Shown piece after piece: positions 1,243 through 28,845 of a DNA stretch of 64,000 nucleotides; position 1 is the first letter of the stretch, and every line of letters starts with the position of its first letter. The DNA comes from Paecilomyces variotii. Taxonomy: Eukaryota. The DNA is taken from the NCBI GenBank assembly GCA_004022145.1, contig RCNU01000005.1; one strand, given 5' to 3'. The notes beneath the pieces are model-generated. The model was given only the letters and a program-made list of their open reading frames with translations, was not told where the DNA came from and made no database searches. The position numbers and the translations under genes were made by a program.

Positions 1243-3277
1243 TTAATCTTCTTCCGACTCGGAGTCCGTGTACTCCTCTAGAAACCGTATTAGCTCCACA
1301 TCAGATTTGCACTGGATAGGAATTCTTACCTTGGGCAAGGCCAAAATCAAAAGTCCCACCCAAATTCTGTGCTAATGTCTCGCCTATTACTGTTTGTGCT
1401 TCCTCTGTGATATTGGCATCTGACAGTGCGTTTAGTATCGACAAGTGCAGACCTCTATTGCCGGGTCCCAACTGCGATATAAAGTCCAGGATGCCTTCAG
1501 CCGTAAAGTCACTTAGAGCATGAATAATTAAGACGCGTAGCTTAGGCAGGGCTAAGAATGCATTCCACACTTCGTCATCGAAGTCGTGTCCACTTATCCA
1601 GAGACGTTCCAGTTGGGGAAGGTATGGTGTGAGCGTTATTACGTGATCTGGGGTGAAATTCTCCGAGATATCTTTTAATTCGAGCTCGCGGAGGTTGCTG
1701 AGTTGTCCCAGAGCTTGGACAAGGATCGCCTGATCATCAGGAAACTCGGAAGAATCACCTTGAAGGTACAGGCTCTGCAAGGAAGTCTGAGAAGCCAAAG
1801 CCTCGTGGAACGCACGGCTTGTTTGCATCGTGTATCCTTCCACTGAGAGTTTTGTCAACCGCAACCTATCATCGCTGAGCGCCTGCGATAAGAGGGCCGG
1901 GTCATCAAGAAATCTTCGAAGTGCTAGCAGCCTTAGATTTTTGCAGGAGCACATCCATTCCGCGACATCTCTCACAATTGAATAAAACTTTTCGTCCCTT
2001 AATGCCGGGGCAGAGTCTGTTAGAGCTAAAACTCTCAGCGCCGGAGGCGATGTGAGGGAAGGAAGTTCCGCAATCGCGTCAATTTGTAGGCTTGTCAACT
2101 TGAGCTCCGTGAGTGAATCCAAATGGCTACCGAATGCCTTGATCGAGCGCGGGCCCAGTTGAGACAGACTGATTACTTCGAAATATTCTAGGCTATGTGG
2201 TCGGAGCCCATTCAGAAAGCGTTCGCATGTCAACTCTGCCTTATCCGTCGGAGAATCCATCCTGTGGCAAACCGTGAGAAATGAGAACGCGCATAGTGAA
2301 TATCTGACATACCATCTGAACAAGGTTAATTTCCTGAACTCTGGACAATGAGCCTTGATCTCGACTTCAGCCTGCTGACTTAAAGCGTTCCCTGACCATA
2401 GTGACAGCGCTTGCAATTGGGCCAATCCCCGAACCCATTCAGAAAGCGACGAAGGTGAAACTGTAGCTACATTCAGCAAGTGACTCGACTTGCTATAAGT
2501 TCCCAAACTGGAGCTCACCGTTTCCTGACAATTCCCTGACTGCTGTTGCTTTTTTGACAATAGCTGAGAATGAGTTAGCTTAGACATACCGACCAATTGA
2601 GCTAGGACCGCCCTCAAAGTAGAAAGCACTAACCTGCACCCAGTCTTTCCCCAATAGCTGCTGTGTCGATAGATGACTTGGAAGAACGCAGACGCTTATT
2701 TCCCTTTAACTCGTACTCTGCCTGGTCTCGGAAGGCGTAGTCTCCGAGCTCCCCAGAGAAAAACTCACTACACATGATTAGCGATCCAACAGGGACACGA
2801 GGAGCTATTGAAATGTCGTACTCTCTGATCTTCCCAGTGAATCTGGAATCGCTGATTAAGTTCGTTAGGTCCGTGAGATCCAGCTCACGGATGTAACTGT
2901 AGTAGGGCAAGTATGTTTTGTCGAAAGTCGACAAGATAATCGAGCGCCACATAAGGGCCCATTTTCTGACAACAGCATCCTGTTCGCTTCTGGCGCTTGC
3001 TAAAGAGACTGCCGTCCTTCTCGATTTAAATTGTTCGTCTTCTGGTCCGCCGCCTGTGACCGGCGAGGTGTCATACAATCTGGGAGACCGTTCAGCAATG
3101 CGAAGAATTCCTTTTGCAACACACAGGTACATATGCTTACTGATATAGAACAGTAATCGCTGGCTCTGTCAAGATGTGAGATGATACGGCGCATTGGAAT
3201 ATGGTATTATAGTCTCTCTCGGCCTTTAAGAAGCCCAAGATGATATACCAAACATCACTGGGTAACACCACCGCCAT
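1243..3277 (-). CDS. Leucine-rich-repeat (RNI-like) protein with possible N-terminal F-box-like segment; multi-exon
   Basis: ATG at 3277 gives MAVVLPSDVWYIILGFL (F-box-like LP-D-W-I-FL); ORFs 2629-3132 and 1301-2629 contain repeated LxxLxL motifs; short final acidic exon ends at TAA 1243. Confidence 0.7.
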
Positions 3278-23135: not shown

Positions 23136-23935
23136 GTCAAGGTTGACTCGCGTAGGTACACTTCTCTCTTAGCGCAAATACTTCCCTTGAAATAAGAACA
23201 AGGATGAAAAAGTAGCGGAAATAACAACAATTTAAGAATAAGGTAGTAACTCCTGCGATCCTCAGAGTTAGGTACGAGTTACGAGTTACGAGGTACGAGT
23301 TACGAATAATGAATGGCGAACCCCCTCAACAGGTTAACTACCTATCTGATGTTCTCCTGGCGGTGGCGGTCTAAGATTTTGCGGGGAAGAATATGTAACC
23401 CCAACCAATGGAATTGGAATTCCAGTTCGGAGTGCGAGCCGAGGGCCGAACTTGGAGGGGAGGGGAGGGGAGGGGGTTTTCCGTGATTTGTCTTTGATAT
23501 GAGTATCCGTATTATAGTATTATGATCGTCGATTAGGGTATAGTATAATTGTCGGTTGGGGTGGGTAGGTTGATATGTGTTTTATTCCGGGGAAGGGATG
23601 GATTGATTGCTTGACGAGGTTCTTTGTTGTTGGGGTTGACTACGAAGTACGATGGTTGAATGATGAAAAGTCAAAGTGTAGTAGATTAACTAGCACTATA
23701 CATGGTACCATACCAAACAAGGGATATCAATGCAGAGCTTTAACAGCATGGTTCCTCCTATCCACGCAATTCTTGGTTCGTTTCATGTCATGTCCTCTTT
23801 CCTGCCTCGAACGCCGCGGGTGATATACTATAAAAGAAAAGAACAAATGTTGGAGGGTCGCAACAGAAGAAGAATACTTAAAAGATCAGACATGGACAGA
23901 CAAGTCGTGATATGTAATGTCCCGGATGTAATCAT

Positions 23936-25610
23936 CTATCCTTTCGTGATCCATCCACTGTGCACCATAAAGTCGTAGATCCGACTTGTCTTGGTAACGT
24001 CGATCTAGAAGAAAGTCAGCAATACTCGTTAGCGACAGAGCCCATTCGACTCACCTTGCAGAGTGTCCGAGCGTCTTTCTTTTTCAAACTACCGTTCTGT
24101 TTCATGGCTTCCTTCAAGAGCGCCTCCTTGACCACGAGATACGGCTTCGGCTGCATGTGAAGTACATTGCAGAGTTCGACTTCTTCTTTGGTCAACAAGT
24201 GCAAGTCGGGCGCCCCGTCATTCTCAAGCTTCCAAGGCGTCACCCCACTCAGCGGTTGGACGACGTATTTCGACTTTGCCGGTTGTGCCGTGTCGATGCC
24301 GTCCCCATTGCTGGCGAACATCCGATCGAAATCATTCATCGGAGGCTTGGTCTCTGGAGCTGGCTTAGTCGTTGCCTTCTGCTGTTGCAGTCGCAAAGGC
24401 AGCTCTGGAGCCGTGAGCTGACTGGCGGCAGATGGCTGGTCGGGTTGCTGGGACTGCTTCGGACGCGCACTGGCTAATCGGTCAAATGAGCCTTGCGGGA
24501 TGGCTCTCTGCGCCCTCTGCAGCTTCTCCTGCTCGTACTTCTCGCCGCTCTTGAGGTCCCCAATGCCCATCTGGCGCCATTCCTGCAACTGGGCGATGGC
24601 GAGCCGCAGGTTGTGTTCATATTCAAGACCCTTGCAGAATTCCTCAAAGTCGTCGTGGTTCATCATCCGGGAAAACGGCTTCGCCTTGTTCAGCAGATCC
24701 CTCTCTTCTTTGGTACGCTTCTTCTCCTGAGCAGTATTTTTCCGGTATTCGAGCAGGTTGTGCTCGAAGAGAATCTTCTTGCGCTCCGTCCGTGCCGTCA
24801 GTCGGGAATTGTAGATCTCCATGACCGTCATCTTCAACTCCATCTCCGGCTCCATCTCGCCCTTCTCGTTGAGGCCATTGCCAGGTTCGAAGGTCATGTG
24901 CTGCACGGCCTCTTCCGCCTCATTCAGGAACTCCGTCTCAAACTCCAATCGACCGGGCATGTATCCTTGAACCTCATGGCAGGCCGGTACACTAGCAGTA
25001 GGCTTCTGCTTCGGTGTTGCGGGTGGCGCGGATTTGGCTGCCTCTTTGCGCTCTTCGATCCGTCGCTTCTTCCGCGCCTGGAACTCCTCCTTGGGGATAC
25101 TGTCCTGAAGGCTCGTGTCATGGGGGTCCGCACGCGCCGGAAGGGGGAAGTTAGGACTGTTGATGTATGTGTCGATATAGTGATCCCGGACTTCATCTTT
25201 GGTCCGATAGCCACCAATATGATCGGCGATATCCGCCCATGAACCCAAACCGTAGATTTCCGCACCTTCCAGGAGCAGCAGCTCCTCATCCGCACCCCAG
25301 TCCTCCGTGTAGATGGGCACTGAGTTCTGCTCGATTACTTGGTACGGATGCGTCCTGGGATCATGGTTCTTGGAGCTCTTCCCTTCCGAGAAACAGGGGA
25401 CGCAGAGGTCGTACTCAGGGCATGCACTGTGCGCGCACGATATCCGGACCTGCAAACACGGTCAGTCTCCTCCCTTGGCCGACTCCCTTCACCATCATAT
25501 AGGTTGCCCAGACTTACCGTCGAGGTCACGTCGACGGAGCAGACATCGCAGTGGTATTTGGTGCCTCCCTCGGTGCCGCGCTGGGCGGTCTTCTTTCTTA
25601 TTACACCCAT
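23936..25610 (-). CDS. ADA2: SAGA/ADA complex subunit Ada2 (ZZ, SANT, SWIRM); 3 exons; conserved start at 25610, possible upstream start at 26021
   Basis: MGVIRKK...[33 protein letters not shown] (ZZ), [29 protein letters not shown] (SANT), [14 protein letters not shown]-terminal [25 protein letters not shown]. Confidence 0.95.
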
Positions 25611-26594
25611 CGCACTTTCGATCCGGTCATCCTCCGCCGCATCCGAATCCGTCTCGGAAAATGAATCGCGCCCTCCAGAAGCGGAAGAGGGCGACGCACA
25701 GCTGGACAGGCTCTCGAGGTCGTGGTCGTCGAAGAAGCGGTCGTAGCGCTGCGCAGGCCTTCTCCGCAGTCGAGTGGAGACGCGTGGTTGCGACGAGACG
25801 GGCTGTTTTCGAGGAGCGGCAGGGGTTGTTGAGCTGGAGCGCTTCGGGGGCGAATAATTGGGCGGGGGAAGGGGATGATTATTGTTGGTGGTGGTCTTGC
25901 GCGCGGTTGTTGCAGCTAGACTGGAGGTGTTAGTGTTGCAGCTGGCGGTGACTCTGGTCGTCTTCCGGGGAACCAGAGCGTCTTTGCGGGCGGTTGTTGG
26001 GCGCGGCTGCTTGCGGGCCATCCTGATTGGCTGGCTGTGGCTCTCAGCCACCGGCACGCGTGCACCGCCTCGTTGCGATCACGTGGGGGGACGGCCCCCG
26101 GGCGGTGAGGCTCAAGGCGGCGTTCTCACTGGCTGATCGGCCAGTCGGTGTGGACAGTACTACAGTACTATGGTACTTGGTCAGTCAGCCGCACGCCTCA
26201 GGCAGCCCTTCCCCTCCCCCCAAACGGAATCGATCGATCCCTCCGAGTCTCCTGTTCCCACCCCAACTTGTTGTCTCAGACTCCCTCGTCCCCAGGGGTC
26301 TTTCGCTCTCTTCTTCCTCGTGCTGTGCTTCTAGATTCTGTCGTTCGTCACGGAGCACTTATCTGCCCTTCCCGTCCCAGTATCTTTACCTCTGTGGCTC
26401 CTGTCCGCGTCCGAAACACTCGGCTGTTGTGTGCGTTGCTTACAACCGGCTGTGGCTGTAACAGTTCGGTGTACGGCCAACGGCATCGAAATTATTAACC
26501 TCTCCCCTCGATCACTGCAGTTGCCCTGGGTTGTCCCTCAAACAGGACTGTCTGCTGGTGTTCTTTGTCGTGTACAATCGCACTGTCGACAAAG

Positions 26595-28845
26595 ATGTCG
26601 TGGAAACTCACCAAGAGTACGTTTCCCTAGTTTCGCGTCTGATATTCCCCTTTGGCGCCAGGTCGGGTCGAGGGAAGAAGAAGACGATGAAGGATCAACT
26701 GACAATTCATAACCAGAGCTGAAGGAGACTCATCTGGCACCTCTGGCGCAGTCCTTTGGTCGCTCGTCGTCGACGTCCACGATTAAGGGTGAAGCGGCGG
26801 AGGAGACACCCGTGTCATCTCATCCCCCCAGTATAAATACGGCCAGTGCCAATGGGATCTGTAAGTGAATTTACGGGTCGGGTCACCAACAAGTGAATGC
26901 AGATCTGACACCATGTGAACACAGCGGCCTCAGAGGCTTTGGTTTCACCACCAGCACCCCCGACGAAACCTGGTATCCTTATCGTGACACTTCATGAGGG
27001 AAAGAGCTTCTCGCTTTCGCCTCACTATCAACAGATCTTCAACTCTCACTTTCAGAACAGTGGTGCCTACAGTTCCTCTGTTCGTCCCAGTTCATCCTCT
27101 TCGCACACCAATGGTCCCGCTAGCTCCTATGTCGCGAGTAACCGACCGCAGTCGACAAGCGGCGGTATCAACGCTGCCCCCACTATCCACGGTCGATACT
27201 CGAGCAAATATCTTCCATATGCCCTGCTCGATTTCGATAAGAATCAGGTCTTTGTAGATGCTGTGTCAGGCTCCCCTGAGAACCCCCTGTGGGCTGGTGA
27301 CAACACCTCCTTCAAGTTCGATGTTTCCCGTCAGACAGAATTGAGCGTCCAGCTGTACCTGCGGAATCCTGCTGCCCGGCCTGGTGCTGGTCGCAGCGAG
27401 GATATCTTCTTGGGAGCCGTCAAGGTGCACCCCCGCTTTGAAGAGACCAAGCCGTACGTGGACGATCCCAAGTTGAGCAAGAAGGATAACCAGAAGGCCG
27501 CTGCTGCTCATGCTGAGCAGGAGCGGACAATGGGTCAGCTGGGAGCAGAATGGCTGGATCTGCAATTCGGTACGGGTTCGATTAAGATTGGCGTGTCATT
27601 CGTCGAGAACAAGCAGCGCAGCATGAAGTTGGAGGACTTTGAACTTCTAAAAGTTGTTGGAAAGGGCAGTTTTGGCAAGGTCATGCAGGTCATGTGAGTA
27701 TCTCCGGTGAAAAGAGACACTCTATTTTCTCGCGCTCGATGCTAATCTCCCCAACAGGAAGAAAGATACCGGCCGGATCTACGCCCTGAAGACCATTCGC
27801 AAGGCTCATATCATTTCTCGTTCCGAAGTCGCCCATACTCTCGCTGAAAGATCTGTGCTTGCACAGATCAACAACCCGTTCATCGTTCCTCTCAAGTTCT
27901 CTTTCCAGTCGCCAGAAAAGCTCTACCTGGTGTTGGCATTCGTCAACGGTGGTGAACTTTTCCACCACTTGCAGAAGGAACAGCGATTCGACATCAACCG
28001 GGCGCGATTCTACACAGCAGAGCTTCTCTGTGCCTTGGAATGTTTGCACGGTTTCAAGGTCATCTACCGTGATCTCAAGCCGGAAAACATTCTGCTTGAT
28101 TATACAGGACACATTGCCCTCTGCGACTTCGGTCTCTGCAAGCTCGACATGAAAGATGAGGACCGCACGAACAGTAAGCTCATACCTCGTGTCCAGATTT
28201 CCCTGGAAACTGCTGACCATATTAGCTTTCTGCGGAACACCGGAATACCTTGCTCCTGAGCTCTTGATGGGTAATGGTTACACCAAGTCCGTCGATTGGT
28301 GGACTCTTGGTGTCTTGCTTTATGAGATGTTGACGGGTCTTCCACCATTCTATGATGAAAACACCAACGAAATGTATCGCAAGATCTTGCAGGAGCCATT
28401 GACGTTCCCCAGTCATGATATCGTGCCTGCTGCCGCGCGAGACCTGCTCACGCGTCTGCTCGACCGTGACCCTCAGCGTCGTCTGGGCGCCAATGGTGCG
28501 GCTGACATCAAGGCTCACCACTTCTTCTCCAACATTGATTGGCGTAAGCTCCTCCAGAGGAAGTATGAGCCAAGCTTCCGTCCCAATGTGGTAAGTATAA
28601 ACTCCTCGCTATATCTTTAATCTGAGTTGATGTCTGACACCGTGCAGGTTGATGCCCGCGACACCGCCAACTTTGATCGCGAGTTCACTTCCGAAGCCCC
28701 TACGGACTCATACGTCGATGGACCGGTCCTGTCGCAGACCATGCAGCAACAGTTCGAAGGATGGTCTTACAACCGTCCCGTTGCTGGGTTAGGTGACGCC
28801 GGAGGTAGTGTGAAGGATCCATCTTTCGGCAGCATCCCGGAGTAA
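26595..28845 (+). CDS. ypkA: AGC Ser/Thr kinase Ypk1/Gad8/YpkA; multi-exon
   Basis: Micro-exon MSWKLTK then KLKETHLAPL; C2-like region; GKGSFGKV, YRDLKPEN, DFG, FCGTPEYLAPE; hydrophobic motif QQFEGWSY. Confidence 0.93.

Follow-up and report, generated by a model that had tools for sequence, protein, structure and literature searches.

The acetyltransferase Gcn5 depends on the adaptor Ada2 for its activity on nucleosomes. In the 64,000-nucleotide stretch of Paecilomyces variotii DNA analysed here (the window, from contig RCNU01000005.1), the reading frame of ada2 stays open for 137 codons above the conventional start codon. With modest confidence, these 411 bases are interpreted as exon 1 sequence of an adaB-type ada2 that encodes a real, fast-evolving and disordered extension of the protein, with a targeting-arm function that we infer and with a second, 518-residue product. 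The extension is homologous to Ada2 extensions in many Eurotiomycetes. It consists of a variable basic head rich in Ser, Thr and Pro, a conserved arginine block (P79-Y93) and a conserved acidic block (S120-A137), predicted to be helical and with CK2-type sites, which abuts the Gcn5-binding ZZ domain. The Paecilomyces lineage seems to have elaborated the basic head into five [AP]RK motifs.

The extended reading frame of ada2

The open reading frame (ORF) runs on the minus strand from ATG 26021 through ATG 25610 to the exon 1 donor at 25518. This is what the initial annotation of the DNA had claimed, and its 137 codons are reproduced exactly by ORF and translation checks. No in-frame ATG occurs between the outer and inner starts, and the nearest upstream in-frame stop (TGA 26081-26079) lies 19 codons above ATG 26021. 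Reading from the outer ATG yields an Ada2 of 655 amino acids, and reading from the inner one yields 518. The components are as follows.

25611-26021, minus strand: N-terminal extension of ada2, the 5' part of exon 1, 137 codons read from ATG 26021
26019-26021, minus strand: putative initiation codon for the long isoform; surrounding bases caggATGg, with A at -3 and G at +4
25803-26018, minus strand: variable basic, Ser/Thr/Pro-rich head with five [AP]RK motifs
26018-26007, 25994-25983, 25970-25959, 25907-25893 and 25817-25803, minus strand: RK-motif sites, respectively ARKQ, TARK, PRKT, TARKT and APRKQ
25743-25787, minus strand: block B, conserved arginine block (P79-Y93), from the alignment of long Ada2 sequences
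25611-25664, minus strand: block C, conserved acidic block (S120-A137) directly before MGVIRKK, from the alignment and the codon-position pattern
25608-25610, minus strand: inner ATG (MGVIRKK), start of the conventional 518-residue Ada2
23935-25610, minus strand: remaining ada2 (exon 1 core 25610-25518, exon 2 25449-24055, exon 3 24004-23935)
25517-25450 and 24054-24005, minus strand: ada2 introns, both removed in RNA contigs X5, X8 and X11

The protein is an Ada2. ZZ, SANT, TADA2A-like and SWIRM domains follow one another in this order (PF00569/PF25299, PF00249, PF22941 and PF04433 in the precomputed Pfam annotation of P0001, a 655-residue GenBank model from P. variotii that is 99% identical to exon 1 of the window), and residues 138-654 match the Ada2 chain 9ynv_M among Protein Data Bank (PDB) sequences with E = 1.6e-230. 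Residues 138-655 have the domain architecture of canonical Ada2/AdaB proteins, such as the 517-residue protein of A. nidulans, the yeast protein (6cw2, 6cw3) and the 519-residue protein of 9ynv, 9ynw and 9yzy. The canonical forms, in contrast, start at MGVIRKK or near the ZZ domain. All solved chains lack the extension, including the closest, the 519-residue 9ynv_M.

Long forms of Ada2 in the Eurotiomycetes

A profile of exon 1 ORFs retrieved 93 Ada2 proteins. At least 60 residues precede MGVI[RK]K in 42 of them, 10-59 residues in four and 1-9 residues in two, and the remaining 45 start there. Named long forms come from Phialophora, Fonsecaea, Exophiala and Rhinocladiella (Chaetothyriales), Phaeomoniella, Paecilomyces and Talaromyces atroroseus; the database models from Chaetothyriales and Phaeomoniella are 607-642 amino acids long. 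Short forms are found in Aspergillus, Penicillium, most Talaromyces, Onygenales, Rasamsonia, Thermomyces and Thermoascus, and also in Sordariomycetes outside the class, for example Pyricularia and Verticillium. A long-form Eurotiomycete Ada2 was defined by at least 60 residues before MGVI[RK]K together with the patterns P.R.T..R[RK]...Y and S.[ED].E[ED][DN].R[IV]E.S. The window protein belongs to this class: its residues 79-93 and 120-137 align with the corresponding blocks in 41 long sequences. Block B has the consensus P.R.T-R[RK]-P-[VA].Y-T, with P kept in 38, the first R in 37, T in 34, the next R in 34, R/K in 36 and Y in 36 of the 41. The consensus of block C is S-[ED]-A-E-E-D-A-R-I-E-R-S, with S126 and E130 each kept in 40, R133 in 39 and I134 in 38.

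The head is far more variable. MAR[KR] opens the extension in P. lecythidis and in P0026, and ATG-GCC-CGC (M-A-R) is also present in metagenome locus L001. PRKT is found in all five family-level sequences and a motif of the type [AGP][AP]RKQP in four of the five. The named Chaetothyriales retain blocks B and C and have no RK motifs. Another sequence, P0034, has the basic head MAPPAKRPRTTTRK, and the head of the window resembles a derivative of such a head. Among 42 extensions that passed a block C filter (a scanning set that leaves aside the Paecilomyces group, P0025 and P0026), 14 have RKxP immediately ahead of block B.

Coding-type conservation of the extension

Extended models from Paecilomyces are already abundant in the databases. 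GenBank holds ten sequences of 655-660 amino acids under P. variotii accessions (DTO strains), with up to four accessions shown per sequence. Further extension-bearing models are of 649 and 657 amino acids in P. lecythidis and of 903 amino acids in strain No. 5. The window extension is identical to those of P0114 and P0118, and exon 1 with its extension is 73% identical over its full length to the 649-residue 'Transcriptional adapter ada2' of P. lecythidis. The P. variotii complex has nine distinct haplotypes of the extension, separated by 11 gap blocks that are spread over nine places; every block is in frame and none is accompanied by a stop. All five RK motifs are retained in each of the nine. 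The extension agrees with that of P. lecythidis at 109 of 132 aligned residues (82.6% identity), compared with 97.7% identity in the core, and in the P. variotii complex the head changes 7-10 times faster than the Ada2 core. Blocks B and C and the five RK motifs are constant in the comparison with P. lecythidis apart from the first residue of block B, which is Ser instead of Pro in P0127, and the changes D132E and A137S in block C.

Metagenome loci carry the comparison to the level of codons. An inner ATG was located in 69 of the 75 loci, of which 19 (17 distinct) are KYHC-type, that is, Eurotiomycete-like, and 50 (32 distinct) belong to other lineages. Among six distinct sequences, pairwise differences in block C at codon positions 1, 2 and 3 are 0.074, 0.215 and 0.607, and those in the exon 1 core of the same six are 0.062, 0.022 and 0.544. 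The arginine codons of block B alternate between CGN and AGR from locus to locus. The upstream frame is open for at least 89 codons in 8 of the 17 distinct KYHC-type loci, as against one of the 32 distinct loci of other lineages; in the remaining 31 it is open for just 2-42 codons. From this pattern the extension is probably translated, as a genuine, lineage-variable disordered arm of Ada2.

The long isoform proposed in the initial annotation is well supported by sequence comparison: the frame persists through many in-frame indels, and homologous extensions that show coding-type conservation are widespread in Eurotiomycetes. A comparison of upstream regions in relatives, which had been named as a test of the idea, gives a divided answer. 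The frame and the five RK motifs are kept in all nine Paecilomyces-complex haplotypes, but frameshifts occur in sequences of the Thermoascus aurantiacus type, as described below.

Leader or coding sequence

The most serious alternative, which we consider unlikely, is that the stretch is a long 5' leader or promoter and that the 518-residue Ada2 is the sole product. The frame would then be a relic kept open by C-rich composition, and the conservation would act at the level of RNA or DNA. A number of observations point in this direction or otherwise weigh against a translated extension, and they are gathered here with the evidence that answers them.

Openness of the frame is weak evidence of coding in itself, since dinucleotide shuffling of the 156 open codons leaves 298 of 5,000 sequences (about 6%) free of stops as well. 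The region is C-rich and T-poor, and its other two frames hold one and three stops. A depletion of ATGs, which might mark a leader, is not significant in the extension (2 ATGs against 2.3 expected).

Promoter elements lie close to the outer start. A CCAAT box at 26030-26026 stands four bases above ATG 26021, so that the caveat already attached to the initial annotation remains in force, and a CACGTG element lies 59 bases above the same ATG. Such elements are usually found upstream of the transcription start, and transcripts would therefore be expected to begin below ATG 26021. CACGTG also marks the 5' border of the open frame in loci L007, L013 and L015, about 315 bases above their Ada2 ATG, and may be a shared promoter element of ada2.

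RNA contigs from four runs of four studies were compared with the window. Spliced contigs were obtained in three of the runs. They join 25611-25903 to the rest of ada2, a point in favour of the extension, and have three different 5' ends, at 25903 (X5), 25837 (X8) and 25665 (X11). None of the three reaches 26021, and positions 25904-26292 are uncovered in the X5, X8 and X11 runs. Contigs of this kind are unable to show where transcripts start, and they neither support nor refute a start above 26021. The fourth contig, X1, is an unspliced and DNA-like sequence of 6,939 bases from a related strain, with 40 substitutions and two indels relative to the window over 3,601 bases. It has one difference in the 411 extension bases (D98H), against seven in the 271 bases just upstream, where there is also an indel (Fisher p = 0.008), and eight in 235 bases of 3' flank (p = 0.002 relative to the extension). 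In 1,555 core coding bases there are 14 substitutions, of which 13 are synonymous. Because the differences form clusters in a mosaic pattern, the extension may owe its low divergence to a larger quiet region around it, and the comparison gives only modest support for coding.

Polymorphism within P. variotii is also ambiguous. The 137 residues of the extension have five amino acid polymorphisms, whereas the 518-residue core has none, an excess that fits a weakly constrained disordered region and also fits non-coding DNA. Database annotation is divided as well. The extension sequence is already public with conflicting annotation, in automatic predictions of which some are named 'hypothetical protein', and the RefSeq model of the reference strain (P0121, XP_028485200.1, 508 amino acids) is short and begins at MGVIRKK. 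The same model reads into intron 2 (24005-24054), although RNA contigs from three runs lack this intron, and it seems to be wrong at its C-terminus as well. In two further models, P0127 (903 amino acids, strain No. 5) and P0019 (735 amino acids, Aspergillus granulosus), Ada2 is joined to a crotonase/enoyl-CoA-hydratase-like protein. These fusions are probably annotation run-ons into a conserved neighbouring gene. The initial annotation knew of no description of the extension, and in the literature searched, judged at the level of titles, abstracts or listings, none was found; the long gene models were nevertheless already in GenBank.

Loci with damaged frames form the remaining group. L001 and L002 carry the homologous stretch across three frames, which corresponds to two frameshifts with no room for introns. 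The successive frames read MARRPP...PRKT...GARKQPPP, then PRASTRLRRAPARYQVDY...DDDHDHD, then SPSSASGGR...EDDRDEQS-MGVIRKK. The Ada2 core of these loci is identical at 517 of 517 positions to the named T. aurantiacus protein, so the extension would be dispensable or decaying in the sister genus. From the sequences, the T. aurantiacus-type extension is broken unless both assemblies share errors. In L001 the homologous stretch lies at 2629-3066. Its first frame begins in a perfect gccgccATGg context and would give an upstream ORF of 122 codons ending 14 bases before the Ada2 ATG. The DNA remains alignable despite the broken frame, and a 29-base block (25667-25695, minus strand) is identical between the window and L001 while its flanks diverge; it holds a 7-bp GC-rich inverted repeat. 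A hairpin at 25693-25669 was considered and rejected (-16.8 kcal/mol, z = -1.44; 19 of 200 shuffles fold as well). Locus L010 (L010:753-800) has a stop in block C, two codons before the end of the block (ATA TAG against ATA GAG). It is a near-twin of L006 and L008, and the stop is either a sequencing error or the mark of a broken extension allele. In L007, L013 and L015, 103-124 open codons above the Ada2 ATG contain no ATG at all; these frames could be relics, use a non-AUG start or be served by an upstream exon.

Against a leader without a protein product stand the 11 in-frame gap blocks free of stops in nine haplotypes, the conserved ATG with its MAR[KR] head, and the behaviour of blocks B and C, in which amino acids are conserved, third codon positions vary and arginine codons switch between CGN and AGR in other lineages. 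Two out-of-frame ATGs directly above the inner start would, moreover, hamper synthesis of the short form.

The upstream ATG at -20 and a proposed short isoform

These two ATGs are located as follows.

25628-25630, minus strand: out-of-frame upstream ATG at -20 of the inner ATG, with A at -3, opening a 9-codon upstream open reading frame (uORF) that overlaps the inner ATG
25642-25640, minus strand: second out-of-frame upstream ATG

Position -20 is occupied by an ATG in 15 of the 19 KYHC-type loci (13 of the 17 distinct ones) but in none of the 50 other loci (0 of 32 distinct), and this ATG invariably has A at -3. In L020 the corresponding ATG is at -19. The ATG opens either a 3-codon uORF or a uORF of 9-10 codons that overlaps the inner ATG; the window uORF encodes MTGSKVRWV and ends inside codons 3-4 of MGVIRKK. 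Its position is conserved beyond the needs of the overlapping coding frame. It persists where frame 0 has undergone an Asp to His change (L015 and L017) and where the upstream frame is closed (L017 and L019), which points to selection on the ATG itself. Such selection would imply that initiation at the inner ATG is regulated, on transcripts whose 5' ends lie within the extension or below it. The -20 ATG is therefore a likely translational control element of ada2, as judged from these comparisons.

This conservation counts on both sides. It speaks for the leader-only alternative, in which the inner ATG would be a regulated start in this class of loci, and the persistence of the ATG argues that a short isoform is also made. 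Taken together with the coding signature of the extension, the conserved ATG is most simply accommodated by a model of two isoforms. In the interpretation favoured here, the 518-residue product would be made from ATG 25610 on transcripts that start inside the extension and would be gated by the ATG at -20.

Predicted structure and possible functions

In an AlphaFold2 model of the 655-residue protein (76 sequences), residues 1-125 have a predicted local distance difference test (pLDDT) score below 50, and residues 125-136 form a helix at a pLDDT of about 50. No confident contact between head and ZZ domain is predicted, the head itself being of low confidence (pLDDT below 50 over residues 1-125). 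Searches with the extension returned little: phmmer with all 137 residues against 1.84 billion representatives gave no matches, Pfam assigned no families, and ESM Atlas gave no usable match.

The pattern of a bipartite nuclear localization signal (PROSITE) consists of two basic residues, a spacer of 10 residues and at least three basic residues among the next five. One match to it is present in the window extension, with RK71-72 followed by RLRR 84-87. In the scanning set 5 of 42 extensions have the strict pattern, where shuffled sequences give an expectation of 1.5, and 10 of 42 contain K[KR]x[KR]. A classical nuclear localization signal was rejected as the general meaning of the basic parts, since a pattern found in just 5 of 42 extensions does not define the family. 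The acidic block of the window holds three sites of the form S/T-x-x-D/E, the pattern of CK2-type sites.

On these grounds the basic parts may act as a targeting or anchoring arm, in nuclear import and/or in nucleosome or DNA contact for the SAGA/ADA acetyltransferase module, and the acidic block may be a regulator or partner surface. It counts against this part of the proposal that the function of the arm is read from motif patterns only. An arm directed to the nucleus or nucleosome would nonetheless be a more conservative reading than mimicry of a histone tail. More specific proposals can be made for each of the basic segments, and two are considered here.

A possible HMGN-like nucleosome anchor

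The arginine motif of block B could bind the H2A-H2B acidic patch and so dock the acetyltransferase module, and the basic-then-acidic layout of the extension recalls HMGN. We regard this possibility as quite unlikely. Reported nucleosome-binding motifs are RRSARLSA in HMGN, RRSSRLTS in Dsup and RRSARIAT in yeast Dot5 (PMC12487698, PMC13347269). Dot5 requires arginines 1, 2 and 5, and Dsup likewise has three functionally essential arginines (PMC12487698, PMC13347269). Like these proteins, the extension is disordered, passes from basic to acidic and has an R-x-S-[AT]-R-[LK] core, and the core of block B, R-[STNV]-T-R-[RK], is conserved across the 41 long Ada2 sequences. Near matches to the HMGN consensus RRSARLSA are found in L015 (L015:2719-3030), L007 (L007:2656-3027) and L013, which contain RRSARLTA, RRSTRLTA or RRSTRLAA; RRSARLTA belongs to L015 and RRSTRLTA to L007. 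An 'untapped realm' of such motifs is expected by the authors of one study (PMC12487698).

Unlike HMGN, Dsup and Dot5, P. variotii has an incomplete leading pair of arginines. The motif, with Arg at positions 1, 2 and 5 (RRS[AS]R[LI]), is absent from block B of the window, where the sequence R-V-S-T-R-L has Val as its second residue; in most Chaetothyriales position 1 is not Arg. The invariant Thr, and the Tyr that follows four to five residues on, are additional conserved residues without HMGN counterparts. The best-matching loci, L015 and L007, have no ATG in their open frame, Pfam finds no families in the extension, and short Arg/Ser motifs arise easily in such compositions. AlphaFold 3 is reported to model HMGN-nucleosome complexes poorly (PMC12487698).

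Motif-level resemblance of the head to the histone H3 tail

The initial annotation had proposed that the [AP]RK cluster mimics the tail of histone H3. The cluster would serve as a tethered pseudo-substrate or decoy: once Gcn5 had acetylated it, or once it had been methylated, bromo- or chromodomains would read it, and the acetyltransferase module would in this way regulate itself. The motifs themselves are exactly as described. The peptide quoted in that annotation is found in the translation, with five [AP]RK motifs within its first 73 residues, at residues 2-4, 11-13, 18-20, 40-42 and 70-72. There are two copies of TARK, one of them extended to TARKT, a single APRKQ, and an ARKQ directly after Met1; an acidic, Ser-containing stretch follows. 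These correspond to the H3 motifs as quoted there. The cluster is far beyond chance. With motifs that were picked after the sequence had been seen, none of 200,000 composition-preserving shuffles reaches five [AP]RK (residues 1-73, and likewise 1-88 and 1-137), two TARK are reached in 24 of 200,000, and APRKQ in 87 of 200,000.

Histone mimics of this general kind are known. They include the ARKT automethylation site of G9a, the H3K9-like TARK of DNA ligase 1 and the ARSK tail of influenza NS1. The extension shares with them short motifs of the ARK[ST] or TARK type in a disordered segment of a chromatin protein. The known mimics, in contrast, carry single motifs for which both modification and reader binding have been demonstrated. 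The extension has five motifs known from sequence, with lysines that are not universal in its relatives.

Several features speak for a mimic. All five motifs are kept in the nine haplotypes while their linkers vary, one strain (P0120) reads TARKS, and PRKT and [AGP][AP]RKQP recur in five and four of the five family-level sequences. The RKxP found before block B in 14 of 42 scanned extensions overlaps the K-X-P of the Gcn5 recognition sequence, which is reported as G-K-X-P (PMC3344931). The extension would also be tethered beside the ZZ/SANT region that is described as binding Gcn5 (PMC10226619).

Other evidence speaks against a mimic. The study just cited describes the function of the yeast Ada2 ZZ domain as unknown (PMC10226619). 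Residues 1-80 have no match at E<=10 in a phmmer search of PDB sequences, histone H3 included, and so there is no likeness to H3 at the level of alignment. Each Lys is preceded by Arg, not by the Gly of G-K-X-P. P0025 and P0026, the two nearest outgroup sequences, have Arg where the first TARK of the window has Lys (TARR and TTRR, respectively), a difference that would abolish acetylation or methylation there. The head is like the generic basic heads of other lineages, for example MAPPAKRPRTTTRK, the named Chaetothyriales lack RK motifs though they keep blocks B and C, and in the T. aurantiacus type the RK-bearing part is out of frame with Ada2. None of the papers found on histone mimicry, Gcn5 and Ada2 deals with such a tail, as far as titles and abstracts go.

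An argument from the ZZ domain had accompanied the proposal, and it is weakened. A comparison with the H3-reading ZZ domains of ZZZ3 and p300/CBP can draw on the Ala-Arg that follows Met1 and on the ZZ domain further along the same chain. The ZZ domains of human TADA2A and TADA2B, however, are called 'non-H3-binding' (PMC6138639). Taken as a whole, mimicry of H3 is improbable. There is similarly little prospect that the conserved [AP]RK lysines, chiefly those of PRKT, TARKT and APRKQP, are acetylated by a Gcn5 bound some dozens of residues away, or methylated, and then serve as tethered pseudo-substrate or reader bait to tune SAGA/ADA output, which would make the extension a self-contained histone mimic within a histone-modifying complex. 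The variable, disordered arm with a more general targeting role remains the favoured interpretation.

Neighbouring features

Upstream of the extension, the window contains the following.

26026-26030, minus strand: CCAAT box, 4 bases above ATG 26021
26080-26085, minus strand: CACGTG E-box, 59 bases above ATG 26021, overlapping the in-frame stop TGA 26081-26079
26293-28620, plus strand: divergent neighbour gene, with RNA contigs starting at 26293, 26295 and 26317 and introns at 26617-26716 and 26861-26924

The neighbour presumably encodes an AGC-type protein kinase, an assignment made by eye from the motifs GKGSFGKV, YRDLKPEN and GTPEYLAPE. It shares with ada2 an intergenic space of at most about 270-390 bases. 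A search of 25400-26400 with Rfam gave as its sole match a sub-threshold Guanidine-II (26056-26099; 18.5 bits against a gathering threshold of 32, E = 0.4), which was taken as a chance match.

Significance

Eurotiomycetes, a class that includes black yeasts and food-spoilage moulds, seem to add to Ada2 a conserved disordered arm with two short, sharply conserved motifs, placed directly before the ZZ domain that binds Gcn5. If this is true, about half of the ada2 models of the class in the databases begin at the wrong start codon, or at one of two. Structural and genetic work on the short form would then miss a module that could govern nuclear import, nucleosome docking or self-modification. 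The upstream ATG at -20 would point to translational control of the isoform ratio. Standard laboratory methods would suffice to test these points in this tractable mould.

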